Shown: positions 26,327 through 43,533 of the stretch, piece by piece | Numbering within the stretch: the stretch's first letter is position 1 | How the letters are laid out: every line of letters begins with the position of its first letter | Origin: an uncultured Verrucomicrobiae bacterium | GTDB taxonomy: Bacteria > Verrucomicrobiota > Verrucomicrobiia > Chthoniobacterales > JAATET01 | Length of the DNA stretch: 64,000 bases | Reading direction: 5' to 3' | NCBI GenBank assembly: GCA_963719495.1 | Contig: CAVRCI010000014.1 | Coordinates: 1-64,000 of the forward strand | The notes under the pieces: model-generated | Seen by the model: only the letters and a program-made list of their open reading frames with translations | Told to the model about the DNA's origin: nothing | The model's database searches: none | Program-made: the position numbers and the translations under genes

Positions 26327-27429
26327 GTCGGCTCCGAATCGCTCTCCTCGGCACCGGTGCCATCGCGGGTTATCACGTTCGCCCCGACGCCGACCCGTCG
26401 ATCGCATTATTCCCGGACGGTGATGCTGAATTCGTCGCGGTGATGGACGTGGACGCGGATCGAGCCCGGGCATTCGCGGAAAAGTTTGGCATCCCGCGAT
26501 TCCACACCGACGTGGACCGGCTCCTCGCGGAAGAAAAACCGGACATCGTCGTCATCGCGACGCCGCCGGCGTTCCATGCGTCGCTCTCGATCCGGGCGAT
26601 GGAGGCGGGGGCGTGGGTGCTGTGCGAGAAGCCGCTGTGTGCGTCCCTGCGCGAATTGGACGCGATCCAGCAGGTCGAGGCCCGGACCGGGCGTTTCTGT
26701 TCTTCGGTTTTTCAAAGTCGTTTCGGGAGCGCGCAGCGGCACGTCAAGCGGCTCGTGGAGGAGCGGGTTGCGGGCAGGATCCTCGTCGGGACCTGCCACA
26801 CGACTTGGTATCGCGATGCGAGTTACTACGCGACCGGGTGGCACGGGACGTGGAAGAGCGATTTCGGCGGACCGACGATGGGGCTCGGGATTCACGCGAT
26901 GGATTGCTTTCTTTGGACGATGGGTGATTGGGAAACGGTGAGCGCGCTGGCCGCGACGATCGACCGGGACATCGAGGTCGAGGACACTTCGTCGGCGAGC
27001 GTGCGGTTTGCCAACGGAGCCGTGGGCAATATTCTCAACTCCGCCCTCTGCCCGGCGCAGCGAACGTTCCTGCGCTATGATTTCGAGCGGGGCTCGGCGT
27101 GGACGGAAGGCGCGCTCTACAACCTCGACAACGACAAGTGGCGCTTCCAGACGCTGCCCGACGTTGACCCGGCGGCGGCGGAGGAATTCCGAACGATCCC
27201 GGAGGAAATTTCCGCCCAACCTTCCTCCCAGCTCCAGGCGATGGTGCGCGATTTTCAAGCCGGGCGGCGGCCGCTCGTGAGTGGCCCCGAAGTCCGGACC
27301 ACGATCGAGTTTCTGTCTTCGCTCTACAAATCCGCCGCGACGGGCCGGGCCGTCGAGCGCGGCTCGATCGTGCCCGGCGATCCGTTTTACGAACACGTTG
27401 CCGGGACGCTGGCACTGAGCCAGTCGTAG
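26323..27429 (+). CDS. Gfo/Idh/MocA oxidoreductase
   Basis: IALLGTGAIA, IATPPAFH, VLCEKP and GIHAMD. GTG overlaps the MFS stop. Confidence 0.92.
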   Translation: MSRLRIALLGTGAIAGYHVRPDADPSIALFPDGDAEFVAVMDVDADRARAFAEKFGIPRFHTDVDRLLAEEKPDIVVIATPPAFHASLSIRAMEAGAWVLCEKPLCASLRELDAIQQVEARTGRFCSSVFQSRFGSAQRHVKRLVEERVAGRILVGTCHTTWYRDASYYATGWHGTWKSDFGGPTMGLGIHAMDCFLWTMGDWETVSALAATIDRDIEVEDTSSASVRFANGAVGNILNSALCPAQRTFLRYDFERGSAWTEGALYNLDNDKWRFQTLPDVDPAAAEEFRTIPEEISAQPSSQLQAMVRDFQAGRRPLVSGPEVRTTIEFLSSLYKSAATGRAVERGSIVPGDPFYEHVAGTLALSQS

Positions 27430-27457
27430 GCGGCGCTTTTTCCGCCACCCAAGGGAG

Positions 27458-28420
27458 CTACTTTTCGGAGAGACGTTCGATCCGGAGATTTTCGAGGCGG
27501 GCACCGTTCGACTGCGCGCCCGGCTGGAGTTGCGCGAGGAAGGTGAGTGATTGAGCGTCGGCAGGGATCCAGTATTCGGCCCGGATCGTGCGCGGCTCGC
27601 CCGCGGGGGCCGCGTGGCCGATGGGAAGCCAGAAGGGCGCCGGAGTCGATTCGAGGACGGTGGACGATCCGGCGGCGTCGGTGGCGCGAAGCTCGGCGAC
27701 GACGCCGGCCCAATTCTTCGCGGGCTCGGCAACGGAGTCGTAGGTGACGTCGAGCCAGACGCGGACATGGTTTCCGGCCAGTCCGTCGACCGGGATGTCG
27801 CGGGAAATCGAGGAGGGAATTGGCGCCTGGTCCACGGCGAGTTCGCTTTCGCCGCCGAGCGGGATCGAGGTCGTGGCGTCCGGGGCGGGAGCGGGCGACG
27901 GCGCGTCCGGATCCTCGCTCGCTCGGCGCACTTCCAGATCGTCGATCCAGATGTCGGCGTCGCCGGATTGAAAGGCGGTGACGAGGATCTCGCCGGTGCG
28001 GGGACCTGGGTAGGGATCGCTCACCGGCACGACCGCGCGGTATTCCCGCCAGTCTTCGGAGGGCTCGATCGTGATGGAATGAGGGTCCTCCGCTGGCTTG
28101 CCGTCGGCACCCGGACTGATGACCTTCAGCACGACTTCGAGTCGACTCTCGGCGCGGGCGTGGAAGGAGACTTCGAAATCGCCGGTCCCGTCGGTGAGCA
28201 GTTCAAGGTGTTGGTAGCCCGGTTGGATCTTCCAAGCCCGGGTTCCGCCCGGCGTGTGATTGGTGCCGGTCTCGAGTTGGACGTTTTTCGCGGAGCTGAA
28301 GTTCCCCCCGAAGACGGCCCCCTCGAACGTGCCCGGCCAATAAAGATTCGGCGAATCGGCGGCAAAGAGCGGGGTCGCGGCGGCGACGGCGAGGAGGGAC
28401 AAAAGTCGGGTGGGAGACAT
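27458..28420 (-). CDS. Secreted two-domain carbohydrate-binding-like protein
   Basis: Signal peptide and two beta-sandwich-like halves (ending IWIDDLEV and ARLENLRI) joined by a Pro/Ala linker. Confidence 0.6.
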   Translation of the reverse strand: MSPTRLLSLLAVAAATPLFAADSPNLYWPGTFEGAVFGGNFSSAKNVQLETGTNHTPGGTRAWKIQPGYQHLELLTDGTGDFEVSFHARAESRLEVVLKVISPGADGKPAEDPHSITIEPSEDWREYRAVVPVSDPYPGPRTGEILVTAFQSGDADIWIDDLEVRRASEDPDAPSPAPAPDATTSIPLGGESELAVDQAPIPSSISRDIPVDGLAGNHVRVWLDVTYDSVAEPAKNWAGVVAELRATDAAGSSTVLESTPAPFWLPIGHAAPAGEPRTIRAEYWIPADAQSLTFLAQLQPGAQSNGARLENLRIERLSEK

Positions 28421-28568
28421 CGTCTGCAGCGTTCATGAACTGGCGGCAGCGGCCAAGGTCGGGCGTGAGCATATGGTTGCACCACCTGGGCGAGAAGCGA
28501 ACGGCGGTCACCGACCGCCGCCACGACCGAAGTCAGGTCAATTGTGAACGCTCGCAAGACTCGGTTCA

Positions 28569-28727
28569 GGGTGTGATTGCGAAAGTGGGCCGAGAGAGCG
28601 AGGGAACGCGCGGCGCGACGTTCCCTACCCGACTGGGTAGGGCTGGTCGCGCCGCGCCAGCCGTCTTCAATCTCCGCGGTGCCACTTTCTTCGTCTCGCC
28701 CCGGTGACCTTTTTCGCAATCACACCC
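28569..28727. mobile_element. 159-bp MITE, copy 1
   Basis: Perfect 16-bp TIR GGGTGTGATTGCGAAA/TTTCGCAATCACACCC. 9-bp direct repeat CTCGGTTCA at 28560-28568 and 28728-28736. Homologous copy at 54064. Confidence 0.9.
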
Positions 28728-29480
28728 CTCGGTTCACCCACTCTGAACCAACCATCAGCCTGCCCCCGCCGACGAATTAGCCCGGACCTCCGAGCTACCG
28801 GAAGCGAGCGTCGGCGCGTCGGATGCCGGGCGGTCGGTGCAATCTGCATCCGGCGTTACGACGCGGGCGCATGCCGCGAACCGGCGGTAATTCGGGGGGG
28901 GATTTCTTTGAGTAAGCGGGCATCGGATGCGAATTCTGAACCAATGAACGGACTGACACGTTCTACGACGGCGATGGAGTGAGCGCAGATCAGAACGCGA
29001 ACGCGGGAGTCGCGGCAGGGGCACAGGTTGTCGACGTCGATGCGGTTGTTGAAGCGGAAGCCGCGAGGAATTCTTTACCGCCCTCCGAGACTCGTCCTTT
29101 GAGCAACGGCGGCTCGTAGGTCGCTTCGGTCACGTGACCGCCTTCGTGGATGGCTCGCGCCTGCTTCCAAATCTGCCAACCGCCCATGCCCGTGAGGGAT
29201 TTTTCGGTCAGGACGATGGTCGGATCGGTCGCGGGCGGCATCCGGCGCATGATGCCCGCGCGACTCCATTGCGCAACGGGGTAGACTCGGCGAAGGTCCC
29301 GTTTCTTTTGCGCCTGCGCGCTCGCCGTGATGTGTGTCGGCTGTGCGACCAAGCCCACCGGATCGTCCGTGGTGTTGACGGGAGCGGTGACGTCACCCGC
29401 TGAATTTTCGCTCCCGCCCACGACCCCTTTCCGACCCCTTTCCGCGGGAAGTAGGAATTCGTTTTTGCATACTGACCCCC
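28705..29480. repeat. About 0.78-kb direct duplication, copy A (copy B at 31609-32397)
   Basis: Near-identical sequence with about a dozen substitutions counted by eye and small indels. Confidence 0.92.
28960..29241 (-). pseudogene. 5' fragment of a SWIM-zinc-finger (SNF2 helicase-type) gene, frameshifted
   Basis: MPPATDPTIVLTEKSLTGMGGWQIWKQAR...KEFLA, then a frameshift into FRFNNRIDVDNLCPCRDSRVRVLICAHSIAV (CxC...CxH). Truncated at a GTGTCAGTCCG motif. Confidence 0.7.
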
Positions 29481-29670
29481 CACTTCTGACCCCCACTTCC
29501 CTCTCCGAATCTGAGCCCGACAGTGAAAGTCGAAAATCGATGGAAAGTTGCGAGCGCCGAATGTGCCAATGCTATGGACCGACCCCTTCACGTGACCCCT
29601 TCCGCTAGCTAAGCGTCGTCAGAATTCATCGGCTGACCCCTACCGCTTTGAAGAATTCATCGGCTGACCC
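29420..29670 (-). repeat. Cluster of GGGGTC-core repeats (minus strand)
   Basis: Tandem (C/T)GACCCC units at about 29422, 29432, 29473, 29486, 29580, 29594, 29634 and 29665, including two copies of GAATTCATCGGCTGACCC. Confidence 0.85.
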
Positions 29671-29678
29671 GAATGGCA

Positions 29679-30032
29679 CTAACTTAAGGAGGATTTAGGA
29701 GGCGGCTCGCGTTTGGGAATCGGGGAGGGATCTGGGGTTCTCAAGATGAGTTTCTGGGTTATCTCGCGCATCTCGGTAACGTTCTTTTCCAGCTTTCGAT
29801 GGTTGGCGATGGCTAGTTTCATCCTTTGGGCTTTGAGGGGACTGAGCCCAACGGTGACGGTTTTTCCGGCAACTTTGCGGGTCCACCGCCAAGCCCGGGG
29901 AGGTTGGGGCATCACGCTTCCCTGACTCAATTCGGGGAAGCTTCCCAGCTCCGAGGCCAGGGTGCTGTAGCGTGCTTCGAGTCGACGGATTTCCCGGGCG
30001 GTGAGGTCGGATTTTTTAGCGGTTTTCGGCAT
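29679..30032 (-). CDS. Small basic IS-associated protein (DUF6788-like)
   Basis: SQGSV...WRWTRKVAGKTVT pattern. Lies inside the IS, divergent from the transposase, with its stop in the left TIR. Confidence 0.6.
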   Translation of the reverse strand: MPKTAKKSDLTAREIRRLEARYSTLASELGSFPELSQGSVMPQPPRAWRWTRKVAGKTVTVGLSPLKAQRMKLAIANHRKLEKNVTEMREITQKLILRTPDPSPIPKREPPPKSSLS

Positions 30033-30074
30033 AATTCACTGGCGGCTTCGATTAAGTATATATACTTGTATTGG

Positions 30075-31580
30075 ATGCGTTCTTTCAACCCGTTTTTCCC
30101 AAATTTTAGTTCGCGGCTTTTTGGACGACCGCCAGTCTCACCCCTGACGCAGGCCCTTGCCAAGCTCAGGCAGAGCGGTTCGCTCTCGGTGTTGGTCAAC
30201 GTCTTTGGCTCCTACATTTCACGGAAGTTACTTAGCTCAACGCCCAGCTGTGCTCACAGCCGCAAGCGCATTTTCTCGCTCGAACGTGTCTTCTGGAGCT
30301 TCCTGGATCAGGTGCAAACCCCGAACGGTTCCTGTCGCGAAGCCGTGTGCAAGGTCATGGCTTTGGTGAGCAGAAAATCCAAACCGTCTGGCACTACAGA
30401 GACCGAGGTCATGAGTGGCAATACCAGCGCTTATTGCCAGGCGCGAGCCAAGCTCCCGGTGGCGACACTGGAAGGAATCAACACCCATCTGGCCGTGCGC
30501 ATGGAAGCCAATATTCCCAGCGGCGCTCTCTGGCATGGTCGCCAGGTACGGCTCGTGGACGGCACGGGTGTCTCCATGCCCGACACCGAAGCCAATCAAG
30601 ATCGTTGGCCGCAGAGCAGCAGTCAGAAGCCGGGGTGTGGCTTTCCCGCAATCAATCTGGTTGGCGTTTTCTGCCTTCTCACCGGAGCTCTTCTCAAGGC
30701 GGATTGGGGCGATCGTCTCACCCATGAGACCCGGCTTTTTCGCAACCTTTGGAGCATTTTCAATCGTGGCGATCTCGTTCTCACCGACCGGGGATTTTGT
30801 TCCTTCGGGGCTATTGCCGGTCTGCTCTCCCTGGGCGTGGACTCGTTGATGCGCTTGCCCGAAAAACGGATCCGCAAGGCCATTGGTGCTCAGCTTCCCA
30901 AGTCGGCAAATTTCGATGTGAACATTGTCTGGAAGCGCCCCGCGCAGCGACCACGCGGGATGACGCCCGAGGAGTTCGCGCTCTGGCCCGCGGATATTCC
31001 AGTGCGCGTCGTGCGCTACACCATCGCCCAACCCGGCTTCCGCACCCAGACCGTGACCTTGGTGACCACCCTGCTGCTCTCCGAGACGGCCATTCCCGCC
31101 GATGATCTCGCCTCCCTCTACTTCCGCCGCTGGAGCGTCGAACTCCATTTTCGCGAGATCAAGATCGCTCTCAACATGGACGTCTTGCGCTGCAAATCCC
31201 CGGCCCTCATCGAGCGCGAACTCCTCATGCACTTCATCGCCTACAACCTCGTCCGCAGCGTCATGCAGAAAGCCGCCCTGATTCACGAACTCGACCTGGA
31301 TCGCGTCTCCTTCAAGGGCACTCTCGATACCGTCCGTCAGTTCGCCAACGCCACCAGTGGGGCCAACGCTAAACCCCGCACCATCTCCGCCATCCTCGAC
31401 GCCATGCTCTCTGCCATCGCCAGCGATCTCGTTCCGCTGCGCCCAGACCGATCCGAACCCAGAGTCAGAAAACGCCGCCCCAAAAACTATCGCCTCTTGA
31501 CCAAGCCCCGCCGCCAAATGGGACCGCTCCCTCACCGAAAATCCGGGGTCGAAAATCCTCCCAAATCCCCCTTATCTTAG
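30075..31580 (+). CDS. IS4-family DDE transposase
   Basis: VDGT, DRGF, YFRRWSVELHFREIK (YREK motif) and the RSEPRVRKRRPKNY tail. Confidence 0.95.
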   Translation: MRSFNPFFPNFSSRLFGRPPVSPLTQALAKLRQSGSLSVLVNVFGSYISRKLLSSTPSCAHSRKRIFSLERVFWSFLDQVQTPNGSCREAVCKVMALVSRKSKPSGTTETEVMSGNTSAYCQARAKLPVATLEGINTHLAVRMEANIPSGALWHGRQVRLVDGTGVSMPDTEANQDRWPQSSSQKPGCGFPAINLVGVFCLLTGALLKADWGDRLTHETRLFRNLWSIFNRGDLVLTDRGFCSFGAIAGLLSLGVDSLMRLPEKRIRKAIGAQLPKSANFDVNIVWKRPAQRPRGMTPEEFALWPADIPVRVVRYTIAQPGFRTQTVTLVTTLLLSETAIPADDLASLYFRRWSVELHFREIKIALNMDVLRCKSPALIERELLMHFIAYNLVRSVMQKAALIHELDLDRVSFKGTLDTVRQFANATSGANAKPRTISAILDAMLSAIASDLVPLRPDRSEPRVRKRRPKNYRLLTKPRRQMGPLPHRKSGVENPPKSPLS

Positions 31581-31608
31581 TGCCATTCTCGGCTGACCCC
31601 TACCGCTT

Positions 31609-32397
31609 TGACCTTTTTCGCAATCACACCCCTCGGTTCACCCACTCTGAACCAACCATCAGCCTGCCCCCGCCGACGAATTAGGCCGGACCTCCGAGCT
31701 ACCGGAAGCGAGCGTCGGCGCGTCGGATGCCGGGCGGTCGGGGCAATATGCATCCGGCGTTACGACGCGGGCGCATGCCGCGGACCGGCGGTAATTCGGG
31801 GGGGATTTCTTTGAGTAAGCGGGCATCGGATGCGAATTCTGAACCAATGAACGGACTGACACGTTCTACTGACACGTTCTACGACGGCGATGGAGTGAGC
31901 GCAGATCAGAACGCGAACGCGGGAGTCGCGGCAGGGGCACAGGTTGTCGACGTCGATGCGGTTGTTGAAGCGGAGGCCGCGAGGAATTCCTTACCGCCCT
32001 CCGAGACTCGTCCTTTGAGCAACGGCGGCTCGTAGGTCGCTTCGATCACGTGACCGCCTTCGTGGATGGCTCGCGCCTGCTTCCAAATCTGCCAACCGCC
32101 CATGCCCGTGAGGGATTTTTCGGTCAGGACGATGGTCGGATCGGTCGCGGGCGGCATCCGGCGCATTATGCCCGCGCGACTCCATTGCGCAACGGGGTAG
32201 ACTCGGCAAAGGTCCCGTTTCCTTGGCGCCTGCGCGCTCGCCGTGATGTGTGTCGGCTGTGCGACCAAGCCCACCGGATCGTCCGTGGTGTTGACGGGAG
32301 CGGTGACGTCACCCGCTGAATTTTCGCTCCCGCCCACGACCCCTTTCCGACCCCTTTCCGCGGGAAGTAGGAATTCGTTTTTGCACACTGACCCCCA
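31609..32397. repeat. About 0.79-kb direct duplication, copy B, starting with the terminal about 24 bp of the MITE
   Basis: Matches 28705-29480 and carries an extra 13-bp tandem duplication CTGACACGTTCTA at about 31856-31881. Confidence 0.92.
31876..32157 (-). pseudogene. Second copy of the frameshifted SWIM/SNF2 5' fragment
   Basis: Same translation and same frameshift as 28960-29241. Confidence 0.7.
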
Positions 32398-32399
32398 TT

Positions 32400-33201
32400 T
32401 CCCCAGCCCACTCAGCACTCCCATTAGCGAAATCGCACCGCCGACTCGCACCGCTTCAAGCGTCCGGTTGAACGTTTCCGGCCCCGAGACATCGACCGCA
32501 AGATCCACCCCGCGACCTTCGGTCCACGCGGTCACGGCCTGCGGCCAATCCGAATGGCTCCGCGTATCCCAAACGGCTTCCGCTCCCAACTCCCTCAGGC
32601 GCGGAATTTTTTCTGCGCTGCTCGTCGTCGCAACCACCCGCGCGCCAGCCATCCGCGCGAACTGGAGGCCAAACAGGGAGACTCCGCCCGAACCGATGAC
32701 CAGCACCGTGTCGCCCGGCAGGATCCGATTGCCTTCAAAAAGAGCAAACCATGCGGTTACTGCGGCGCAGGGCAGAGTCGCGGCTTCTTCATCGCTGAGG
32801 TGCTCGGGCACACGCACCAGCCCCTCGGCCGGAACCATGACATATTCAGCAAGCATCCCATCGACCCGACCGCCCCAAAGAGCGCTGGCTGATTTTTCCG
32901 TCGATAGCTCCCCATTGATCCAGCCGGGCATGAAGGCCGACGCGACGCGCTCGCCCACCTTGACACGGTCCACTCCAGGCCCGACGGCATCCACGAGGCC
33001 AACGCCATCGGATAAGGGAACGATCGGCGAGTAGTCCGATGGAGAAGAGTAAGTCCGACGCATGACCAGCAGGTCACGGTAGTTTAGTGAAGCCGCCAGC
33101 ATCCGCAGCCGGACCTGGCCGTGGGCCGGATCGGGAGGAGTTGCCTCACGAAGGATGAGGCCGGGTGTTTGATCGAAGGGAGTGAGTTGCCAAAATCGCA
33201 T
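32400..33201 (-). pseudogene. 3'-truncated MDR-family NAD(P)-dependent oxidoreductase
   Basis: AASLNYRD, PLSDGVG, AATLPCAAVTAW and GSGGVS. Family similarity ends at GVLSGL, where the ORF runs into GGGGTCAGTGTGCAAAAA and the duplicated segment (stop at 31906). Confidence 0.8.
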
Positions 33202-33276
33202 AGGGTATTTAGGTTGCCCCGAATTCTAGCACCGTCCCGCCACTGCTGTGGTGGTTCCATTTTTGTCACTGCATTG

Positions 33277-33682
33277 ATGACCAATAAAGAACATCTCCGA
33301 TTGCCCGTCACCGCCAACCACCGCTACCGGAGCGGGCGGTTGCCCCATCGAGGTGATCTTCGATGTGCTCGGAGGTCGCTGGAAGCCGATCCTACTCTTC
33401 GCCTTCTGGGAGGGCGCACAACGTTTCTCCGAACTGCGCCGTCAGATCCCACAGATCGGTTCTCGCATTCTTGCCCGCCAATTGAGGGAAATGGAACGCG
33501 ACGGCCTGATCAAGCGTTGCGAGGACCCCGATCGCCCGCGGACCTGCATCTACGCACTCACTCCGATGGCGGCTCCCCTGGGAGAAGTCCTTGTCCCATT
33601 GCGCGACTGGGGTGCACGCTATATTCGTCACCGCCTCCAAACTGCCGAGCTGCCCGCAGAACCGCGGAGGGTCAGCCGATGA
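33277..33682 (+). CDS. HxlR-family winged-helix regulator (start frameshifted, possibly a pseudogene)
   Basis: GCPIEVIFDVLGGRWK, RFSELRR, LARQLREMERDGLI and YALT. ATG 33277 is one base out of frame with the conserved part, and the stop is supplied by a repeat motif. Confidence 0.75.
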
Positions 33683-34095
33683 TTTCTGACACACTACTTA
33701 ATCGGCGGGAAATCGGGGTCGGGGAAATCGGGGTCGGTGTGCAAAAAGCAATTATCTCACCTCCGGGTCGGGGAAATCGGGGTCGCTGTGCAAAAAGCAA
33801 TTATCTCACCTCCGCACCGCTCCGTTCGAGCCATGCTGCGAACTCATTGCGGAAGGGGTCAGCCGACGGAAGGGGTCAGCGGAAGGGGTCAGCCGAGAAT
33901 GGCACTAACTTAAGCGCTGCTTTCAAAGTAAATTACCCTTCAATGCCATCCCAAAGCGTCCTTAAGTTAGTGCCATTCGGGTCAGCCGATGAATTCTGCG
34001 TCGAAGGGGTTATCGAAGGGGTCAGTCCGTCGAAGGGGTCTCGAAGGGGTCAGTCCGTGCATTCGAAGGGGTCAGTCCGTGCATTGGTTCGGAAA
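33669..34095 (+). repeat. Dense GGGGTC-core repeat array (plus strand)
   Basis: 49-bp tandem at 33716-33764 and 33765-33813, GGAAGGGGTCAGC x3 at 33851-33896, and CGAAGGGGT x5 at about 34002-34080. Confidence 0.9.
33897..33978. mobile_element. 82-bp miniature (MITE) of the IS4 element
   Basis: Perfect 18-bp TIR GAATGGCACTAACTTAAG, identical to the IS4 left end. 11-bp target duplication GGGTCAGCCGA at 33886-33896 and 33979-33989. Confidence 0.93.
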
Positions 34096-34185
34096 CTGTC
34101 CTGAGGCGAGCCGCGGGATGAGCATCGGAATGCACGGCGCGTCGGGTGACAGAGCTGCGAAGTGCCGCAACGATCCTTGCTTCTA

Positions 34186-34458
34186 ATGTCAAACCCCACC
34201 GCACCCGCCCGTTTTTTCAGCGACGACAGCTATTGGAATCAGCCCATTCCGGACGATGCGCCGATCGCGCCGGAGACGGCTCGCTGGGTTCGTTTTCTGG
34301 AGCAGTCCAGCCGCGAGCCCGGATTTTATCTGAGCCTGCGGCGCTGGACGCTGCCGATCTACGAGACAAAGCCCGACACGAAGTGGGTGGAGATCGGACG
34401 GCGCTTTCACGAGCCATTCGCCGAGGCTCAGCGGAAGGGGTCAGCCGATGAATTCTGA
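34186..34458 (+). pseudogene. 5' partial duplicate of the 36510 gene
   Basis: MSNPTAPARFFSDDSYWNQPIP...RRFHEPFAEAQ, then fused to GGAAGGGGTCAGCCGATGAATTCTGA. The upstream region is also duplicated (about 34065-34427 vs about 36390-36751). Confidence 0.88.
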
Positions 34459-34475
34459 TAGCAGCGCGGAAGGGC

Positions 34476-34626
34476 GGAAGGGGTCAGCCGATGAATTCTG
34501 ATAGCAGGGTGAGAAAGCGAGTTCTGCGGAAGGCAATAACCAATAGATTGTGTGGTCCCAAATCAATGGATAGCTTCTGCCCAAAACAAAAGCGAATTGG
34601 TGAGAAATCATCGGCTGACCCCTTCC
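34476..34626. repeat. REPIN-like hairpin unit
   Basis: Perfect 19-bp inverted arms GGAAGGGGTCAGCCGATGA (34476-34494) and TCATCGGCTGACCCCTTCC (34608-34626) around an AT-rich spacer, with tandem partial arms outside on both sides. Confidence 0.85.
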
Positions 34627-34743
34627 AGACCCCTTCCACTGACCCCTTCCCCGGCGGAGCGGGTCCAAAGCGCGGCGTCGAAGTGATGGAGGAGAGTATC
34701 CGGCATGAGAGAGCTGCTTGTGCCGGTGACGAGACTAATTCCA

Positions 34744-36230
34744 TGTCGGGGCCTGTTCAAAAGTGAACGGAGACTGTTCAAAAGCGGAATGAGAGACTGT
34801 TCAAAAGTGGATTGGGGGTTTTGGGGCGTTGTATTGGGAGACGCGGGAAGCGCCTCGGAGGAGGCCGGAGCGTAGCGGAGGCTGACGGAGAGGCGCTTCC
34901 CGCGTGCGCGCCTGCTCCCCGGCCCCAGTGCCCCAAGGATACCAGCCGTTGGGGTGAAGCGTTTGTGGAACGCGCTGGCTTGCGCGCTCGCCTGGTCGAT
35001 TATCCCGGATTGAAAAGAAGCAGATTACCCACCGTCTCCCGCCAGATTTTGTCCGTCGCACACTTGCAGATTTCAATGCAGGACTTCTCGATGCCAGCAA
35101 TGCCGCAAGCCAGTTAGGCATCGGCAAAACCAGGCTCTATGAACTCCGCACGGCCTACCTCGCAAATCGTAATTCCTACGCCCCGGCTGCCAGCGGGGGC
35201 GCTCGTCGCGCCGACTGGCCGCCCGAAGTTGAACGCTTTCTCCAAGAGTTTCTGCCGCTTCAGAACCCACCCAATTACCAGTTAGTCGCCGACGAACTTG
35301 AGCGACTCTGCGGATTCGTTCGGGCGCGCTCGGTCGTCGAGACCCACGTCAAAGCGCGCTACGCCCATCTGGTGCCCTCGCCGACCCGCAAGCCTCGCGT
35401 TTATCGGCGCTTCCGTCGCGCTCGCATCGGCGAACTTTGGCAGCACGACAGTTCGATCCACCAATGGTGGCCCGCCGCCGCTAAACAGACTTTACTGCTC
35501 ACCGTCGACGACCATTCGGGCCTGAATCTAGCAGGTCGCTTCGTGGAATCCGATACCACTTGGAACCATTTCGGACATTTCCGCGAATCCTTCGAGACCT
35601 GGGGCCTGCCGCAGATCGTTTACACTGATGGCCTCAGCCTCTTCGGGCCAAGTTCCAGCGGCGATCACTGCGATCCTAAGAGTGAATTCCAACGCGCCCT
35701 CCGCGGACTCGGCGTCGCTCACTTAGTGGCACCGACCCCACAAGCTAAGGGTAAGATCGAGCGCCGTTTCGGGACTTTCCAGAGACGGCTCGTCACACTA
35801 CTCGCCCATGCCAGCGCCAAAACTTGGCCCCAGGCCGACGAAATTCTTCAGATGGAGATTGCCAGGCAGAACCGTACCGTCAATCGCTCCACCGGCAAGG
35901 TCCCGCTCCATCTGTGGGAAGCGCAGTCGCTTGGCGACAGCGGGCGCATGCGCCCCATCCCGCCTTCCGCGCTCCTAGACTTACACCTCTCAATCCGCTG
36001 CTCCCGCCGGGTGAACAATGACCACACCATCGACTTCGATGGCTCCAACTACGAGATCTCCAACACCCAGCGCAAGAGCGTCACCATCGTCCACCATCCC
36101 GGAAGCCGTTTCTGGGTCGTCGAACACCCTCCCAAAACCGTCTGGCCCCCCATTCTAGGCCACTTCAGCCTCTAAAATCGCTGTTCGCTTTTGAACAGGC
36201 GAGAATTCCGCTTTTGAACAGTCGCCGACA
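34744..36230 (+). mobile_element. IS1202/IS481-like (ISNCY) insertion sequence, 1487 bp
   Basis: TGT...ACA ends with a 20-bp imperfect TIR, subterminal CTGTTCAAAAG x3 left and x2 right, and a 16-bp direct repeat GACGAGACTAATTCCA at 34728-34743 and 36231-36246. Confidence 0.92.
35009..36175 (+). CDS. DDE (rve-type) transposase, IS481/IS1202-like
   Basis: LWQHDSS, VDDHS, YTDG and PQAKGKIERRF. The frame is open upstream of GTG 35372 and includes an HTH (AASQLGIGKTRLYEL). ATT 35009 is the inferred start. Confidence 0.85.
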   Translation: MEKKQITHRLPPDFVRRTLADFNAGLLDASNAASQLGIGKTRLYELRTAYLANRNSYAPAASGGARRADWPPEVERFLQEFLPLQNPPNYQLVADELERLCGFVRARSVVETHVKARYAHLVPSPTRKPRVYRRFRRARIGELWQHDSSIHQWWPAAAKQTLLLTVDDHSGLNLAGRFVESDTTWNHFGHFRESFETWGLPQIVYTDGLSLFGPSSSGDHCDPKSEFQRALRGLGVAHLVAPTPQAKGKIERRFGTFQRRLVTLLAHASAKTWPQADEILQMEIARQNRTVNRSTGKVPLHLWEAQSLGDSGRMRPIPPSALLDLHLSIRCSRRVNNDHTIDFDGSNYEISNTQRKSVTIVHHPGSRFWVVEHPPKTVWPPILGHFSL

Positions 36231-36509
36231 GACGAGACTAATTCCATTGCGGCTTCGTGTAAATGGTGCGCCTCCCGACGGGCACCGCGCGTCGAATCGG
36301 CTGAGGACAGCCGATGGTTCAACGCCGCCAAACTGGCCGAAACGAATGCCCGGCGCCCGCCACGAGGTCATCGAAGGGGTCAGTCCGTCGAAGGGGTCAG
36401 TCCGTGCATTGGTTCAGAAACTGTCCTCAGGCGAGCTGGGGGCGAGCATCGGAATGCACGTCGCGTCGGGTGACAGAGCTCCAGAGTGTCGGAAAGCTTC
36501 CCGCCCTCG

Positions 36510-37634
36510 ATGTCAAATTCCACCCCACCCGCTCGGTTTTTCAGCGACGACAGTTATTGGAATCAGCCCATCCCGGACGACTCGCCCATCGCGCCGGAGA
36601 CGGATCGCTGGGTTCGGTTTTTGGAGCAGTCCAGTCGCGAGCCCGGATTTTATTTGAGTCTGCGCCGTTGGACGCTGCCGATCTACGAGACGAAGCCCGA
36701 CACGAAGTGGGTCACGATTAAGCGGCGCTTTCACGAGCCGTTCGCCGAGGCGCAGTATTTGTATCGCCATTCCAAGTATCTGCTGGAGGCTCGCCCGGAT
36801 CACCCGGTTGGGTTTGGCGAGGGCTTCGGTCCGACCATTCCGATGCCGGAGGACGCGGTGCCGGACGCGATGACCGATGGCCACCTCAGTATCATCGACC
36901 GCGAGCGGAACAAGGTGTGGGATCTGTGGGGTGCACGGCGCAACGACGACGGCACGTGGTCGACGTGGTCGGGGATCACCTACCCGCTGGACGGGCCGGG
37001 GACGTTTGATCCGAAGCGGTTTGCGATTTCGAACGGCGAGACCATTCACCTCTACGGTCCCTGCCGGGCATCGGGGACGCCGAGCATCGCGGGCATCACC
37101 CGCTACGACGAAGTCCTGAGCGGGCGGATCGAGCACAAGCTGTCCTTTGCCACGCGCTTCGCGGGCCTGCTGGCGCACTGCTTCCCCGCGACCTGGACGG
37201 ACGGTGGCATCCTGGGCGGCATCCCGGAGGGGATCACGATGCAACTCGATCCGACGCTGGATCTTTCGACGCTGGGGCTGAACGACGGCGCGCGGGTGAT
37301 CGCGACGGCGATGCAGGAATATGGCGCGGTGCTCATCGACGTCTGTCTTGGCTCCACCATCGGCGCCGAGAACCTCAACGGACACGCGAGCAAATCTTGG
37401 GACGGCATTCTGGACGAACGCGATCTCAACGCGATTCCGTTCGAGCATTTCCGCTTCATTCAGCCCGCGACCATCGTCGAAAAGGGCCTGATTCCGGCGG
37501 TGCATCCGACGACATTCCAGACCTACCACGAACTCATGCAACTCCACGACGAGGTCGAAACGGAGCAGGGGACGTTCGTCGGGTGGCCGAAGGATTGGTA
37601 TCAGCGTCACGCGGCGAAATACGAGCCCGCGTAG
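36510..37634 (+). CDS. Hypothetical protein of unknown function
   Basis: Long clean ORF with SYWNQPI, DGHLSIID...WDLW, RASG, IEHKL and MQEYGAVLID. No family assigned. Confidence 0.75.
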   Translation: MSNSTPPARFFSDDSYWNQPIPDDSPIAPETDRWVRFLEQSSREPGFYLSLRRWTLPIYETKPDTKWVTIKRRFHEPFAEAQYLYRHSKYLLEARPDHPVGFGEGFGPTIPMPEDAVPDAMTDGHLSIIDRERNKVWDLWGARRNDDGTWSTWSGITYPLDGPGTFDPKRFAISNGETIHLYGPCRASGTPSIAGITRYDEVLSGRIEHKLSFATRFAGLLAHCFPATWTDGGILGGIPEGITMQLDPTLDLSTLGLNDGARVIATAMQEYGAVLIDVCLGSTIGAENLNGHASKSWDGILDERDLNAIPFEHFRFIQPATIVEKGLIPAVHPTTFQTYHELMQLHDEVETEQGTFVGWPKDWYQRHAAKYEPA

Positions 37635-37836
37635 AATATGAACGAGACTTTGCGGCGGAATTTCTTGGGAGGACAGGGATGCTTTGTTTTTGTTTGGTTC
37701 AAGAGAAACGCGGTTACGCAGGATCCATTTCGATTGTGATCAATAATTTTGATCATGTGCTTGTCTCGACGTATCCCGACGCCTGAGCGCCCGTGCACAA
37801 GCGCCCGGCGCTGGGAGAGATCACATTGGCGGTGAC

Positions 37837-39294
37837 TCAAGGGATGAGTTGAAGTAGGCGAATGACATCCACGATGGCATCTGGATGGTTGATGACGTTG
37901 TGGCCGCTGGGCACGACGGTTTCGCTCGTTGCGCCGTGGAGGTTGCTGCTCGCGTAGGGGACAACGCCGTCAGAACTTTTCGCCAGCGGCGCATCGCCCT
38001 TCCACCCGATGATGCTGTGAAACGGCACCGGAATCGGGAGTTCCGCGAGAGCGCTCAGCGCGGGGCTGTTGGCTGAAAGCGTGCGCACGGCTGAGAAGCG
38101 CCCATCGGCGTAGAAGGCACGGGCGGCAGGGGTGATGGCTCCTTCGTTGGCTCGAGCAAGTTCGGCGAAGCCGGACTCGGCGATGGGGGCAAGGCGGGTT
38201 AGCGTTGTTCCGAAGCGACCGAGGAGGTTGTCGGCGATGGGACTTCCTCGGTGGGGGGCGGCCATGAAGATAACGCGTTCGACCCGCGGGTTGCGGTCGA
38301 AGGTGAGCAGGTGGCGGAGGGTTTTGATTGTCTCGGGGTCTCCCTTTAGTTTTTCGGGCGGGGCGGAGAAGACGCTTGACCAGAGGGCTTCGCCGCTGTC
38401 GCTGACGAGGGTGTGGGAGATCACTCCGCCCATGCTGTGGCCGAGGACGACAAGGCGCTGGGTAGCGGGATCGCGGTCGGCGGGATCGAGGGTGGCGAGT
38501 GTCGTTGCGAGGCTGTCGCGAAGGGCGGCGGCGTTGGCGAGAAGGGGATTTCCGCTGGGGTAGTAAAATTGCCAGAGCTGGTATCGCTCGCGGGTTACGG
38601 GGTCGGAGCGGAGGGCGTTGACCAGAGTGGCGAAGGCGACCGGGGTCGATTGCAATCCGTGGACCATGAGCAGCGGGACTTTCGCCGGGTCGTAAGGATC
38701 AAGGAGGTAGATCTGCGGTTTGCGCTCGAGGGAGAGCGGGCGGATCATACTGACGAAGCCAGTAGCCCGTAGCTTCCTGGCTTGGGCGGCGAGTTCGTTG
38801 CCGGCGGCGTTGGGCACGGTGGCGAGCGGATAGGTGCCGCCGAAGAGGTCGACCTCATTAGTGGAGGTGAGAATGCGAAGCCGGGGGCCGTCGGGAGCAG
38901 GCGAGTAGATGGCGGTGGCGTTGACGTAGAGTCCCTCGGGTGGATGGAGTGGGTGGCTGGCGGTGTCGAATTCGAGGACGAGGGGCGTGCCGATGGAGCC
39001 GGTAACGAAGCGGTCGGAGATCGCGATGACGCGGATGGCGACGAGGGGAAGGTCGGTGTCTGGGAGGGTGAGCCGGACGCCAAGTGAGGTCAGTCGCTCG
39101 GACCACGTCGCCGGGTCGGGAGAATCGACGGCTTCGCAGAGTGCGCGGGCGGCGGCGTTGTAGCGGGGGATGTCGGTGGGCAGGGCGAGGGTGGCGTTGT
39201 CGGCCTCGGCGAGGCGACTTTCGATTGGGATGCTGGCACAGCCAACGAGGCTGAGGGCGATGAGAATGGGAATTGCAGTGGTGGCAATTTTCAA
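37837..39294 (-). CDS. Alpha/beta-hydrolase (lipase/esterase) lipoprotein
   Basis: Lipobox LVGC, VHGLQS, GHSMGG, APHRGS, SDGVVPY and SGH. TTG start overlaps the upstream stop. Confidence 0.85.
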   Translation of the reverse strand: MKIATTAIPILIALSLVGCASIPIESRLAEADNATLALPTDIPRYNAAARALCEAVDSPDPATWSERLTSLGVRLTLPDTDLPLVAIRVIAISDRFVTGSIGTPLVLEFDTASHPLHPPEGLYVNATAIYSPAPDGPRLRILTSTNEVDLFGGTYPLATVPNAAGNELAAQARKLRATGFVSMIRPLSLERKPQIYLLDPYDPAKVPLLMVHGLQSTPVAFATLVNALRSDPVTRERYQLWQFYYPSGNPLLANAAALRDSLATTLATLDPADRDPATQRLVVLGHSMGGVISHTLVSDSGEALWSSVFSAPPEKLKGDPETIKTLRHLLTFDRNPRVERVIFMAAPHRGSPIADNLLGRFGTTLTRLAPIAESGFAELARANEGAITPAARAFYADGRFSAVRTLSANSPALSALAELPIPVPFHSIIGWKGDAPLAKSSDGVVPYASSNLHGATSETVVPSGHNVINHPDAIVDVIRLLQLIP

Positions 39295-40751
39295 AATCGG
39301 ATGACGGCTTCGAGCCCGAGGAAGTGAGTGGTCTCGGCGGGGCCGGTGTCGGAGATGAAGGCTCCTGGGTGGAATTGTGAATAGCTGATCAGGAAGGCGA
39401 GTTCGCGGGTGGGATTCCATTCCGCGACGAACTCGCACTGGGTGCCGATGAATCGTTCGTTGCTGTTGGTGCCGGTGCCGTCGCCGGCGGAGCGGACGAG
39501 ATTCCCGCCGACGCCGTAAACGCCGTCTTCGGTGCTGGCACGCCAGTAGGGTCCACCCTGAAAGTAGAACGTGAGATCGGGTCGGGGCGTGAGGATGAGC
39601 GCGCCCTGGAGGTTGATGAGGTTGTAGGGGCCGACGGGGGTGAGTTCACCGAAGTATTTTCCCTTGGGGTAGAGCGGATTGAAGGTCTGGAGGTCCGCGT
39701 CGGAAGAGTCCTGATCTCCGCTCACGTAGTTGGCGCGGATGAAGAGTCGGGGTGCGGCGGGTAGGGTGGCGAGGGTGTAGCCGAGTTCGGTGGCGGTGCT
39801 GTTGGCGAAGATGAGACCGTGGCCTCGGTCGCTGTCGAAGGTGCCGAATTGCACCATACTTTCGAGGTTCCAATCGAGTGTGCCGAAGCCGACTTCGCGT
39901 TCGCCGAAAATGCGGGTGCCGAGCGTGTGGCGAAGTTCGCGACCGGTGCCGGAGTTGTAAGTCGCGTCGGCGTCGAAGAAGCCGAGGTAGTAAAAATCGA
40001 ACGCCGTCCCGCTGACGACCGGGGGTGGGGTGGCGGGTGTCCAGGTAGAGTAGAGGCCCCAGAGTTGCTGGCGGTCGGAGCTGAGATCGTCGAGGGGGTC
40101 GGGAACCGTCTGGATGGGCCGGAGGTAGAAGCCGTCGATGTCCCAGCCGGATGCCGTCCAATGGAGGATGCCGCCGTCGAAGCCGAGCGGGACGTTTGGG
40201 CCATAGCGGGTCCCGAGGAGGCGCTCGGTGCCGTAGGAGATCATCTGCCGTCCGGCCTGGAGTTCGATTTCGCCGGGGCCGACGGCGATCTTCACCCGGG
40301 CGAAGGCTTGGAGGATGCCGAAGTTTTCCTTGTCGATGGGGCCGGGACCGCGGGCGTCCCCTTCACTGTGGGCGATGATGGGCTGGAAAACGAGTTGGAG
40401 GGTGGAGTCCAGCGGGAGGTCGGGGAAGGTGATCGCGGCGAAAGGAAGAAATCGGGTGAGAAGGTAGCCGCCATCGTCCTGCGGGCCGGAGCCGAAGTCG
40501 GCGTTGCGGATGGCTTCGTAACGGACGCGGACTTCGCCGCCGAGGGTAAGAAAGGCGGTTCCGGAGTGGATGTTTTGAAATTTGAGAGGCTCCCACCACT
40601 GTCCTTGGCGGAAGTCGGGATTCGCGAGATAGCCGTAGTCTTCGAGTTGACGGAGGGGGCGGATCTGCGGGACGCCTTGCGGGAGCGACTGCGCGATGGC
40701 CGCGTCGAAGGTGAGGCAGGCGAGGGCGATCGCAGCGCGGCGCGGATTCAC
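39291..40751 (-). CDS. Alginate-export-family outer-membrane beta-barrel
   Basis: EDY..L, LGGEVRVRYE, GRQ..YGTERL, SGD...TFNPLYP and a C-terminal Phe. Confidence 0.85.
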   Translation of the reverse strand: MNPRRAAIALACLTFDAAIAQSLPQGVPQIRPLRQLEDYGYLANPDFRQGQWWEPLKFQNIHSGTAFLTLGGEVRVRYEAIRNADFGSGPQDDGGYLLTRFLPFAAITFPDLPLDSTLQLVFQPIIAHSEGDARGPGPIDKENFGILQAFARVKIAVGPGEIELQAGRQMISYGTERLLGTRYGPNVPLGFDGGILHWTASGWDIDGFYLRPIQTVPDPLDDLSSDRQQLWGLYSTWTPATPPPVVSGTAFDFYYLGFFDADATYNSGTGRELRHTLGTRIFGEREVGFGTLDWNLESMVQFGTFDSDRGHGLIFANSTATELGYTLATLPAAPRLFIRANYVSGDQDSSDADLQTFNPLYPKGKYFGELTPVGPYNLINLQGALILTPRPDLTFYFQGGPYWRASTEDGVYGVGGNLVRSAGDGTGTNSNERFIGTQCEFVAEWNPTRELAFLISYSQFHPGAFISDTGPAETTHFLGLEAVIRF

Positions 40752-41662
40752 CTCGCGGTGATCTTGAGGTGGATGGAAACGAGGTCGCTGACGAGGTGCT
40801 GGCCGAGGCGGGCGAAGAATTTGCCCGAGCCGTAAAGGACGTTCCATTTCGTGCGGTCGATCTGGAGGGTGGCTTGGGCGACAAGGTCGCCGGTGGCGGT
40901 CGCTCCGATGGCGGCGAGAAAATCGACGGGTTGCGTGATGCCTTTGAGCGTGAGGGTGCCGGAGACGAAATGGTTTGGCTCGCCCGGGCTGCACGACTCG
41001 ACGGGGCGGATCGCGGTGAGCGTGAACGTGCTGGCAGGGAACTGCTCGCTGTCCAAGAAATCGGGAGACATGAGGTGTCCGGCGAGGGCGCGTTCGAGCT
41101 TCGGATCGGTGAGGTCGGTGGATTTGATCGTCGTGAGGTCGAGTTGAATTTCGCCAGTGGTGGGCTCACCGTCGCGGAGTTCGATCCGACCGCCGAGGAC
41201 GTCGATGGTGCCGTGATGGCGGTTGGCGATGTTACGCCCGGTCCATTCGAGAAGGCTCTGGCCGGGGTCGACCGTGAGGGTGCGGGTGAGTGGAGTCGGC
41301 GCCTGATCTTCGTCGGTCAAACCCTCGATGGCGAAGCCGGCTTGGCGCCATTCGGCAAGACCGCCTCGAAAGTCGAGGACGCGCCGGTATCCCGCGCTGG
41401 TGAGGCGGTCGGCGGCCATGGCGGAGGCGAGGCTGTCGGTGTTCAGATCGTAAACGACGACGAGCTGATCGGGATTGGGGATGAGGGGGCGGGCGACGTC
41501 GAGGAAATCGGTCTGGTAGACGCAGGCGTTCACGGCGCCGGGGATACGCTCGGCCTCGAAGGACTCGGGGGGGAGGACGTCGAGGAGGATGAGGGCTTCG
41601 GGGCCAGTGAGGAGGGCTTGGAGGTCAGAGGCGGTGATTGGCTCGGTGGTGGAGAAACTCAT
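40748..41662 (-). CDS. Rhodanese-YceI fusion protein
   Basis: N-terminal LLDV...RIPGAVN...GGLAEW and C-terminal HHGTI, HLMSPDFLD..QFP, GTLTLKGIT, IDRTKWNVLYGS. Confidence 0.85.
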   Translation of the reverse strand: MSFSTTEPITASDLQALLTGPEALILLDVLPPESFEAERIPGAVNACVYQTDFLDVARPLIPNPDQLVVVYDLNTDSLASAMAADRLTSAGYRRVLDFRGGLAEWRQAGFAIEGLTDEDQAPTPLTRTLTVDPGQSLLEWTGRNIANRHHGTIDVLGGRIELRDGEPTTGEIQLDLTTIKSTDLTDPKLERALAGHLMSPDFLDSEQFPASTFTLTAIRPVESCSPGEPNHFVSGTLTLKGITQPVDFLAAIGATATGDLVAQATLQIDRTKWNVLYGSGKFFARLGQHLVSDLVSIHLKITAR

Positions 41663-41685
41663 TGCTGGATATTGTCGAAGTGGGC

Positions 41686-43533
41686 CTAGAAAGCGAAGCA
41701 GTCGCAGCCGCCATCGAGCAGTCCCCGAGGTCCGAGCATCCACTGGGGGATCATCGAACGGTTGGCTTTCGTGGATGGCGCTGGGTGGTGCGAGCAGCAG
41801 TTCGTGCCGGGGTGCTGGTGGAGCTGCTCCCCGAAGCGAGGTTGCCAGTAGCCGGGAAATTTCTGGACCGGCGACCAGTCGGGCATGACGGGGAGTTCGC
41901 CGGGGTCGTGGGGTTTGAACTCCTGCGCTGCGTAGACGGGTTTGCCGCCCATGATGGTGAGCACGGATTCGAGGGCTTTGATCTCTTCGTCCGGCACGGC
42001 GAAATAGTCGTCACTCAACACCGCGACGTCGGCGAATTGGCCGACTTTGAGATTCCCGCGCGTCGCCGACTGGCGCGACATCCACGCGCTGCCCTCGGTG
42101 AAGAGTCGGAGCGCTTCCTCGCGACTGAGTTGCGCCTTTTCGGGATAGAGCGAGAGACCGCCCACGGTGCGCCCGGTCGTCAGCCAATACAGCGAGACGA
42201 ACGGGTTGAAACTCGCCACGCGCGTCGCGTCGGTCCCCGCTCCGACGGGCACGCCCATCTCGAGCATGCGGCGGATGGGCGGCGTGCGCTCGGCGGCCGC
42301 CGCGCCGTAGCGGTCGACGAAGTATTCGCCCTGGAAGGCCATGCGGTGCTGCACGGCGATGCCGCCGTCGAGCGCTTTCACGCGCTCGATGTTCCGGTCG
42401 GAGATCGTCTCGCAGTGGTCGAAGAACCAATGCAGGCCCTCAAGCGGCGCGTGGGCGTTCACGCGCTCGAAGACGTCGAGGAAACGCGAGATCGATTCGT
42501 CGTAGGTCGCGTGCAGGCGGAAGGGCCAGCGGCTCTCGGCGAGGAATCCCACGACCCGCTCGAGTTCGCTCTCCAGCTTGTCGTCGAGGTCGGGCCGCGG
42601 CTCGAGGAAGTCCTCGAAGTCCGCCGCCGAGAAGACGAGCATTTCGCCCGCGCCGTTGCAGCGCAGCAGTTCGTCGCCGTCGTCGGGCTTGATGATTTTC
42701 GACCAGCGCACGAAGTCCTCGAGTTCGCCGCCGGGCTTCTGGGTGAAGAGGTTGTAGGCGATGCGCAGCGTCATCTCGCCGCGCTCGTGAAGCTGGCGGA
42801 TGATCTCGTAATCCTCGGGATAATTCTGAAACCCGCCGCCCGCGTCGCACACGCCGGTGAGTCCGAGGCGGTTCAATTCGCGCATGAAGTGGCGCGTCGA
42901 GTTGTATTGATACTCCATCGGGAGCTTCGGCCCCATCGCGAGCGTGGCGTAGAGGATCATCGCGTTGGGCCGCGCCACCAGCATGCCGGTCGGATTGCCG
43001 GCCTTGTCGCGCACGATCTCGCCGCCGGGCGGGTTCGGCGTGTCCTTCGTGTAGCCGCACGCCTTGAGCGCGGCCTGGTTCAGCATCGCGCGGCAGTAAA
43101 GGTGCAGCACGAAGACGGGCGTGTCGGGCGCGGCGGCGTTGATCTCCGCCAGCGTCGGCATGCGGCGCTCGGCGAACTGGAATTCGCTCCACCCACCGAC
43201 CACGCGCACCCACTGCGGCGCGGGCGTGCGCTCGGCCTGGTCGCGCAGCATTTGCAGCGCGATCGAAACGGACGGCACGCCTTCCCAGCGCAGCTCGAGG
43301 TTGTAATTCAACCCGCCGCGGATGACGTGCAGGTGCGAGTCGTAAAGGCCGGGAATGGCGCGACGGCCTCCGAGATCGATGACTTTCGACTCCAGGCCGC
43401 GCTCGAAATCGGCGGCGTTGTCCACTCCGGCGATGCGCCCGTCCTTGATGACGAGTTCCTTCGCTTCGGGGTGCTGACGGTCGAGAGTCGTGATGCGACC
43501 GTTGATGAGAATGAGATCGGCGGTGGGTTTCAT
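41686..43533 (-). CDS. YtcJ-like amidohydrolase (amidohydrolase_3)
   Basis: IPGLYDSHLH, LHAT, DHCE, GTDA, GQFADVAVL and a Cys/His-rich tail. Confidence 0.92.
   Translation of the reverse strand: MKPTADLILINGRITTLDRQHPEAKELVIKDGRIAGVDNAADFERGLESKVIDLGGRRAIPGLYDSHLHVIRGGLNYNLELRWEGVPSVSIALQMLRDQAERTPAPQWVRVVGGWSEFQFAERRMPTLAEINAAAPDTPVFVLHLYCRAMLNQAALKACGYTKDTPNPPGGEIVRDKAGNPTGMLVARPNAMILYATLAMGPKLPMEYQYNSTRHFMRELNRLGLTGVCDAGGGFQNYPEDYEIIRQLHERGEMTLRIAYNLFTQKPGGELEDFVRWSKIIKPDDGDELLRCNGAGEMLVFSAADFEDFLEPRPDLDDKLESELERVVGFLAESRWPFRLHATYDESISRFLDVFERVNAHAPLEGLHWFFDHCETISDRNIERVKALDGGIAVQHRMAFQGEYFVDRYGAAAAERTPPIRRMLEMGVPVGAGTDATRVASFNPFVSLYWLTTGRTVGGLSLYPEKAQLSREEALRLFTEGSAWMSRQSATRGNLKVGQFADVAVLSDDYFAVPDEEIKALESVLTIMGGKPVYAAQEFKPHDPGELPVMPDWSPVQKFPGYWQPRFGEQLHQHPGTNCCSHHPAPSTKANRSMIPQWMLGPRGLLDGGCDCFAF

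Follow-up and report, generated by a model that had tools for sequence, protein, structure and literature searches.

Orphan TIRYT end-repeats and truncated gene fragments, with a likely common joining position, in an 8-kb insert of an uncultured Verrucomicrobiae bacterium

We analyzed a window of 64,000 nt (C14:1-64000) in the genome assembly of an uncultured Verrucomicrobiae bacterium (G000, the genome under study) and compared it with five further genomes (G001–G005), of which G004 and G005 are congeners; numbers with the prefixes C and L denote contigs and loci, respectively. The window carries an insert in which short repeats with a GGGGTC core, fragments of genes, and mobile elements are lined up. 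This insert is likely a chain of orphan end-repeats of TIRYT transposases, in which pieces of broken DNA were joined five bases before the GGGGTCAG core. Offsets are counted upstream from the GGGGTC core, with −5 denoting a 5-nt leader before the core, and a stutter is a repeated leader, core and part of the arm ahead of a full arm.

The motif GGGGTC[AG]G occurs 23 times within positions 28935–36420 (7.5 kb) compared with nine times elsewhere in the window (56.5 kb). Genome-wide, AAGGGGTCAG was found 57 times compared with 3.6 expected under an order-3 Markov model. The observation of an earlier note, which had been made from the sequence alone, is confirmed: all three arm types and the cores that this note had described are present within ~15 nt of where it had put them. 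Arm A lies at 28957 and 31860 on the minus strand and at 34071 and 36396 on the plus strand; arm B at 29637, 29668 and 34619 (minus) and 33671, 33981, 34440 and 34483 (plus); and arm C at 29476 and 32392 (minus) and 33733 and 33782 (plus). Genome-wide, full-arm copies numbered 53 at 25 loci for A, 10 at four loci for B, and 12 at six loci for C. The core GGGGTCAG of all three arms fits GGGG[AT][CG]A[CG], i.e. the GGGGWSAS consensus by which Di Nocera et al. 2013 (PMC3733652) described, from sequence alone, the TIR repeats and the TIRtron/TIRYT elements. We identify the repeats as terminal repeats (TIRs) of TIRYT/subclass 2.1 Y1 (HUH) transposases that occur here as orphans. Hence, the locus does not represent the “undescribed system” initially proposed, whereas the link made there between GGGG[AT]CA-type repeats and a RAYT group was correct (PMC3733652, 10.1101/279083).

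Read from left to right, the first arm of the insert is an arm A (28936..28965, minus strand) with the leader TAGAA and a degenerate core (CGTGTCAG); this arm also flanks the TIRYT gene on C11. The adjoining 5′ stub of a SWIM-SNF2 helicase gene (28966..29241, minus strand), which contains a 1-nt frameshift, stops exactly at −5; it shares 84% identity with the gene at C13:578175, which is intact and encodes 786 aa, and in the SWIM stubs the gene breaks off after ~92 codons. An arm C with stuttered leader and core (29460..29498, minus strand; AAGTG-GGGGTCAG twice), whose upstream block breaks at −5 relative to G005 (identical C13 copy, row 507807), is followed by a block of B- and E-type cores at 29586, 29599, and 29640 (29499..29670, minus strand; 87% identity to L063 of G005). 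An IS4-family insertion sequence (IS; 29671..31588, plus strand), with open reading frames (ORFs) for a DUF6788 protein (29679-30032, minus strand) and a DDE transposase (30075-31580), has further copies on C2 and C13. Beyond it lie a B core at 31600 with the leader CGGTA (31589..31605, minus strand) and a second unit of arm C, SWIM stub, and arm A (31609..32396, minus strand), which is 96.7% identical to 28705-29480, begins at core 32395 with the leader AAATG and has an extra 13-nt stutter. The next two genes are the 5′ 267 codons of an MDR oxidoreductase gene (32401..33201, minus strand), in which ~70 C-terminal residues are missing compared with a 338-aa homologue, and a gene for an HxlR-family regulator (33353..33682, plus strand) that reads into a degenerate B core at 33668. 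The earlier note had let four genes end at a co-oriented motif; this applies to the SWIM stubs, the MDR gene and the copy of the gene at 36510. Truncation of the HxlR gene was rejected, as it retains a full Pfam domain (1-89 of 91) and little or nothing was lost. An in-frame ATG seems to be absent from 33270-33360; because the ATG found upstream belongs to a different frame, this gene may be frameshifted.

The right part of the insert, on the plus strand except for the arm B dimer, comprises an arm C in two 49-nt copies with stuttered cores and the leader AAATC (33710..33810), a B-core stutter with the leader CGGAA three times (33850..33997), inside which an 82-bp IS4-type miniature inverted-repeat transposable element (MITE) is located (33897-33978), and an arm A stutter with the leader TCGAA five times (34001..34104), in which 7, 12, 6, and 17 nt were copied ahead of the full arm. 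It continues with the upstream region and 82 codons of a foreign allele of the 36510 gene (34105..34431), which end exactly at −5 of core 34437, a dimer of arm B whose two halves face inward and stutter at their outer ends (34432..34651; G005 holds dimers of 90-92% identity), an ISNCY-like element with a 17-bp direct repeat (34743..36230), and an arm A with one stutter (36371..36429; leader TCGAA twice) that is joined to the resident flank. The ISNCY-like element, which has ~10 genome copies, is a later passenger outside the system. The right flank is the intact resident gene (36510..37634, plus strand), whose 374-aa product matched no Pfam or NCBIfam family. This gene is patchy in its order (4 of 40 relatives), and its neighbors are other unannotated sugar-metabolism-like genes. 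To the left of the insert's first arm, 28569-28729 holds an unrelated, REP-like repeat that is present many times in the genome and matches both sides of a short Y1 gene at C8:183857.

Both the IS4 element and the MITE sit within B arms and are flanked by exact 11-bp target duplications. The IS4 transposase scored 199 bits against NF033592 (cut-off 115), and terminal inverted repeats and a target duplication are present. Genome-wide, 28 of 44 ends of IS4 elements and MITEs (the latter 80-375 bp) were located in arm-like sequence. IS4 elements and MITEs thus insert with a preference for TIR arms, which they parasitize separately and target independently.

Every arm type serves as terminal repeat to one particular Y1 gene, the product of which has an additional helical domain at its C terminus. 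Arm A occurs on both sides of the Y1 gene C11:169331-170329 (332 aa) and arm C on both sides of C1:181973-183022 (349 aa), and arm B flanks a Y1 gene in G005; a trans-acting Y1/HUH enzyme encoded outside the window, as had been postulated, therefore does share the arms. Twelve PF01797 matches were found in the genome under study, six of which are Y1 genes of 311-351 aa with inverted cores on their flanks; the remaining six lack these arms on their flanks. PF01797 scored above its cut-off in nine of nine proteins, none of which matched a Pfam helix-turn-helix family, and all 26 homologues that were aligned (26 of 26) share H60, H62, and Y121 without variation. In a search with the predicted structure (pLDDT 86), TnpA-REP (4ER8) was the best fold match. 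A weak match to the DnaA DNA-binding domain (3PVP; E 0.083, probability 1.0, TM 0.69 of target) probably stems from the helical C-terminal part of the model. Upstream cores were present at 79, inverted downstream cores at 68, and both at 58 of 111 homologous full-length loci with enough flank, and those loci that could be named belonged mostly to Verrucomicrobiota, with few from neighboring groups. G001 holds two copies of the arm C TIRtron at other sites, with 97% identity and with ends at the leader, which indicates that whole TIRtrons move.

Many upstream arms of TIRYT genes contain a TTGAC(A) box 10-12 nt past the core and 51-75 nt before the start codon, which could be the −35 element of the TIRYT gene and would then imply self-repression. 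At five loci (L051, L053, L055, L056, and L058), full copies of TIRYT genes are accompanied by 5′ fragments, every one of which begins at a TIR of its own, and some of these fragments derive from different TIRYTs (67-71% identity). At C10:2659, C14:101784, and C13:379694 (L009-L011), Y1 domains occur in frame within ORFs of 926-1163 aa, whose neighboring sequence we take, from motifs, to resemble leucyl-tRNA synthetase, RecG, and alanyl-tRNA synthetase.

The stutters start at a fixed position, whereas their end varies. Between successive co-oriented arm-linked cores, the shared upstream sequence peaked at 5 nt (36 of 127 pairs; 4 nt in six and 6 nt in 18 pairs), compared with 5-nt sharing in only 4 of 301 control pairs away from arms. 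The length copied before restart ranged from 6 to 113 nt (n = 80 stutter units). The complete arm was the last, downstream copy in 44 of 48 clusters, and in 8 of 48 the first copy was complete. In other genomes, 35 loci with stutters again had a mode of 5 nt (21 of 93 pairs), and a second congener set had its mode at 6 nt (16 of 65 pairs, with 5 nt in 6 of 65). The core stutters quoted in the earlier note were recovered near the positions given there, with CTGACACGTTCTA at 28953, 31856, and 31869, CTGACCCCC(C)ACTT at 29472 and 29486, and 17 copies of GAAGGGGT inside the region. A cut on the C-rich strand was rejected by inference, since it would duplicate the flank and not the core.

Long-range breakpoints were surveyed by determining, for each outermost core, where the homology of the upstream DNA to another locus stops. 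This survey comprised 113 sites in G000 and 100 in congeners, of which 37 and 32, in total 69, were informative; sites without a homologue, at known IS ends, or with a homologue that also bears a core were dropped. The breakpoint was exactly at −5 in 18 of the 69 junctions, at −6 to −3 in 34, and inside −3 in two, compared with 7 of 58 at −6 to −3 for plain GGGGTC (drawn from 3052 sites). The anticipated enrichment of breakpoints at the motif was thus observed, although the nominal p ~1e-14 overstates it, as kin loci are not fully independent. Inside the window, −5 is where the SWIM stubs, the block upstream of 29493, and the stub at 34105-34431 stop; the joint at 31609 lies at −8. Two copies on C13, one of 27360-31601 (4.2 kb) and an inverted one of 1381 bp, terminate at other cores, with offsets of −4 and −5. 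Degenerate cores (CGTGTCAG) are found in arm A at 28960 and 31863/31876, and the break is still 5 nt upstream of them; the −5 rule is kept at degenerate core 28960. At C4:336533-336949, the 3′ part of a gene is joined at −5, which indicates that the core, and not the direction of the gene, determines the polarity. A specific capture of promoters and 5′ gene ends, as assumed in the earlier note, was rejected on account of this 3′ part and of an internal IS4 fragment at L260. The dinucleotide CG at the end of the joined strand, a post hoc observation, was found in 9 of 18 exact junctions compared with a background of 12.7%, in 17 of 59 stutter units, and at 25 of 110 outermost cores. We take this bias only as a lead; it hints that the 3′ end was often made by a second, loosely specific cut.

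In G004, the homologue of 27471-28482 directly abuts the homologue of 36430-37623, without an arm-bearing core, and hence ~8 kb were inserted in G000. Flanks of G000 and G004 shared 86-93% identity (300-nt samples). The stub 34105-34431 is 98.5% identical to G004 over 327 nt (99.2% in the coding part) and 88.6% identical to the resident gene, from which it differs by 19 synonymous and six non-synonymous codon changes, compared with two synonymous changes to G004. As the stub is far closer to G004 than to the resident gene, its sequence identifies it as an allele of a G004-like species; the duplicate originally seen in it was rejected, also as an old intragenomic one, on these codon differences. 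The SWIM stub, with 83% identity to G004, where the intact gene shows the background of 88%, is probably foreign too. In five of seven fragment-versus-resident pairs the mismatches gather at one codon position, which speaks for alleles that evolved apart and against duplicates in decay; two of the seven pairs had no congener match. The MDR-HxlR block lies between back-to-back cores. No DNA match to it was found in G001–G005, the MDR gene has no close homologue in G000 either, and the best protein match among 201 genomes was 50%; because a source is lacking, its junctions cannot be mapped to the base. Back-to-back capture was also seen in congeners, where a 297-bp internal IS4 fragment lies between two arm B dimers (L260) and a 3.9-kb block is 93% identical to G000.

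A degenerate arm-like word occurs at the empty site of G004 (L050) and in the left flank of the window (28455-28482), and the arm at the site of the stub may thus be ancestral. The 6-nt word GGCGAG is found at both ends of the insert. Farther right, ~14 kb (37624-51492) are absent from G004 at the syntenic position, and 52700-53676 has 94-99% identity to G004 compared with a background of ~89%, which suggests recent interspecies recombination. A ComEC gene is present in the genome and likewise in 10 of 14 control genomes, and was therefore not used as evidence.

Arm identity, cognate genes, the fixed start and variable end of the stutters, their polarity, the −5 peak, the empty site, and the foreign allele are established. 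Probably, judging from the junction sequences, a trans-acting TIRYT nicks at −5 and keeps hold of the 5′ end, to which it then seals a 3′ end that either was extended or comes from unrelated DNA. The nick would separate −6 from −5 on the GGGG strand, and a TIRYT encoded elsewhere would retain the cut 5′ end as a phosphotyrosine. The free 3′-OH could then be extended by strand displacement across the leader, the core, and part of the arm and be rejoined to the enzyme-held 5′ end, which would leave truncated copies upstream of a complete arm. If instead a 3′ end from another locus or from sister-species DNA attacked, perhaps one made by a loose second cut after CG, the product would be a truncation, duplication, inversion, or captured fragment that ends at −5.

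Several observations weigh against this mechanism. The nick is read from scars, because no biochemistry was found for the subclass, and the arm patterns were defined after the data had been viewed. Of the junctions, 35 of 69 fell outside −6 to −3, mostly at −7 to −13 with a short, often leader-like filler, and 13 of the 93 stutter pairs in other genomes share only 4 nt. No arm B gene was found in the G000 assembly. Of the five fragment pairs for which congeners gave a match, three have a junction-side copy that exceeds its counterpart in similarity to the congeners by only 1-4 points, so that either copy may be the foreign one, and a metagenome scan for a junction between arm A and the gene, as expected of a donor strain bearing the arm, gave no match. 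The model also leaves four features unexplained: the outermost joints of the insert (28482/28495 and 36430) are tail-side and not at −5, so that the founding event is not accounted for; the leader sequence differs between and within loci; some exchanges sit inside an arm (C13:502720 versus 509946); and G004 lacks arm A at the site of the 36510 gene, though the stub carries it.

The best surviving alternative is ordinary nested transposition, in which TIRtrons and TIR dimers with ends at −5 piled up at a hot spot and underwent later deletions, the foreign allele arrived by normal homologous recombination between species, and the array is a scrap-heap rather than the product of capture. The mobility of the arm C TIRtron, whose G001 copies also end at the leader, the recurrence of arm B dimers in G005, and the tract at ~52700-53676, a likely interspecies exchange without arms, are in line with this explanation. 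However, no element was found flanked by both halves of an interrupted sequence in the few cases tested (the C4 dimer and two G001 TIRtrons), single arms at C1:391007 and C13:679150 lie between ~190-bp repeats that have diverged by 9-12% (G001 holds the C1:391007 sequence once), and stutters that are polar, always start at one position and end at various ones are not accounted for by simple insertion. We therefore regard nested transposition as unlikely. It is more improbable still that the arms are passive and that IS4-family and ISNCY elements, slippage, and RecA recombination between repeats built the mosaic. The frequent location of IS4 and MITE ends in arm-like sequence would fit this idea, as would the 4.2-kb copy (C14:27360-31601 and C13:505699-509941), which begins at an IS4 end, but IS4 goes inside the arm with an 11-bp duplication and in a register other than −5, slippage yields no fixed start, most stuttered loci have no IS end, and stutters occur at TIRYT genes in 35 other loci. 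An assembly error in the array or the foreign stub, or a chimera formed with a sister species from the same community, is hardly credible, even for a metagenome-type assembly with 2.77% contamination and with no contig among those listed for the low-depth run X1 bridging the stub junctions, since the signature is repeated in dozens of independent assemblies, one X1 contig (possibly from the source sample) spans 33819-33997 without a difference, the duplicated units have diverged by 1-3%, and a chimera would neither end exactly at −5 nor bear arms absent from G004.

TIRYTs correspond to TnpA-Y1 subclass 2.1, or RAYT group 1, of Quentin et al. (10.1101/279083). In that work, this TnpA-REP subclass ranks second in size and occurs in 14.9% of strains; it is also treated in 10.1101/119735 and 10.1101/2020.03.09.984088. 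Our placement in subclass 2.1 rests on the core, the flanking repeats, and Y1 features. The locus shares with the described TIR/TIRYT elements the GGGGWSAS core, the inverted repeats around a long Y1 gene, the lack of a REP hairpin, and the spread of orphan singles, dimers, and clusters over the genome. It differs in that several TIRYT specificities share one hot spot, and the accessible text of PMC3733652 and 10.1101/279083 gives no cut site, stutters, breakpoint rule, or captured foreign fragments. Our literature search, which did not extend to supplements and subscription papers, found no cut site, stutter rule, capture, or mechanism for subclass 2.1; Figure 9 and the additional files of Di Nocera et al. 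and the supplementary figures of Quentin et al. could show some of these features. What appears to be new from the sequence comparison is the joining rule, mapped to the base at orphan arms, together with the empty site and the donor-like allele, whereas the enzyme and the repeat family were known. Beyond the earlier note, we observed the fixed −5 register, the foreign allele, and the insertion of IS4 elements and MITEs into arms with their own 11-bp duplications.

The proposed chemistry has precedent in the nick-extend-rejoin model of BIME amplification by Escherichia coli TnpA-REP (PMC3333891) and in a strand-transfer assay in which a 3′-OH oligonucleotide attacked the phosphotyrosine link of TnpA-REP in vitro (PMC8266576). 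HUH and tyrosine chemistry is common to both systems, and sequestering of flanking genes was suggested there (PMC3333891, PMC8266576). In contrast, TnpA-REP, as described in these sources, binds single-stranded GTAG hairpins and cuts C|T at a variable distance (PMC3333891, PMC8266576), whereas the arms here have no fold, a register fixed at −5, and a variable leader. None of six arms folded better than shuffled sequences (z −1.15 to +1.45), for which reason REP-like hairpin recognition was rejected; a GTAG foot is not present in the arms, and the REP/RAYT profile NF047646 gave a score of 54.7, below its cut-off of 80.

IS91, ISCR, and Helitron elements have one fixed and one variable end and carry neighboring DNA along. 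The insert resembles them in these respects, but the enzyme here is Y1 and not Y2/Rep, acts in trans on short orphan repeats, and has symmetric inverted parent ends. No IS91/ISCR Y2 transposase with ori/ter ends was detected among the 14 window ORFs scanned; the cognate genes are Y1 and their ends symmetric. One-ended rolling-circle transposition of these elements is named in PMC3333891. As in homology-facilitated illegitimate recombination (PMC5361080), a foreign homologous allele lies beside the resident one with one non-homologous joint, but the joint is fixed in position here, which implies an enzyme. In a preprint on subclass 2.1 TnpA-REP near prochlorosin genes (10.1101/2020.03.09.984088), the transposase was likewise proposed to drive local diversification, and many truncated transposase fragments were described; in the accessible text, unlike here, no inverted repeats were found, and a post-submission note states that there is no strong evidence for or against causality.

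The locus supplies the strand, the position (−5), cognate pairs of enzyme and arm, an empty site, and a donor-like allele, and the function of the “domesticated” tyrosine transposases thereby becomes testable with a few oligonucleotides. If the capture reading is true, TIRYTs would offer a route of horizontal gene acquisition without att cassettes, and also an enzyme able to link arbitrary 3′ ends to a defined tag of short length. More tentatively, and with somewhat less than even confidence, we suggest that TIRYTs and their scattered orphan repeats may form a widespread cassette-free DNA capture system in which each repeat is a permanent entry point. A parked enzyme would then ligate its nick to incoming or broken DNA, alleles and genes of sister species could enter, and this enzyme-driven form of homology-facilitated illegitimate recombination would build variable islands.

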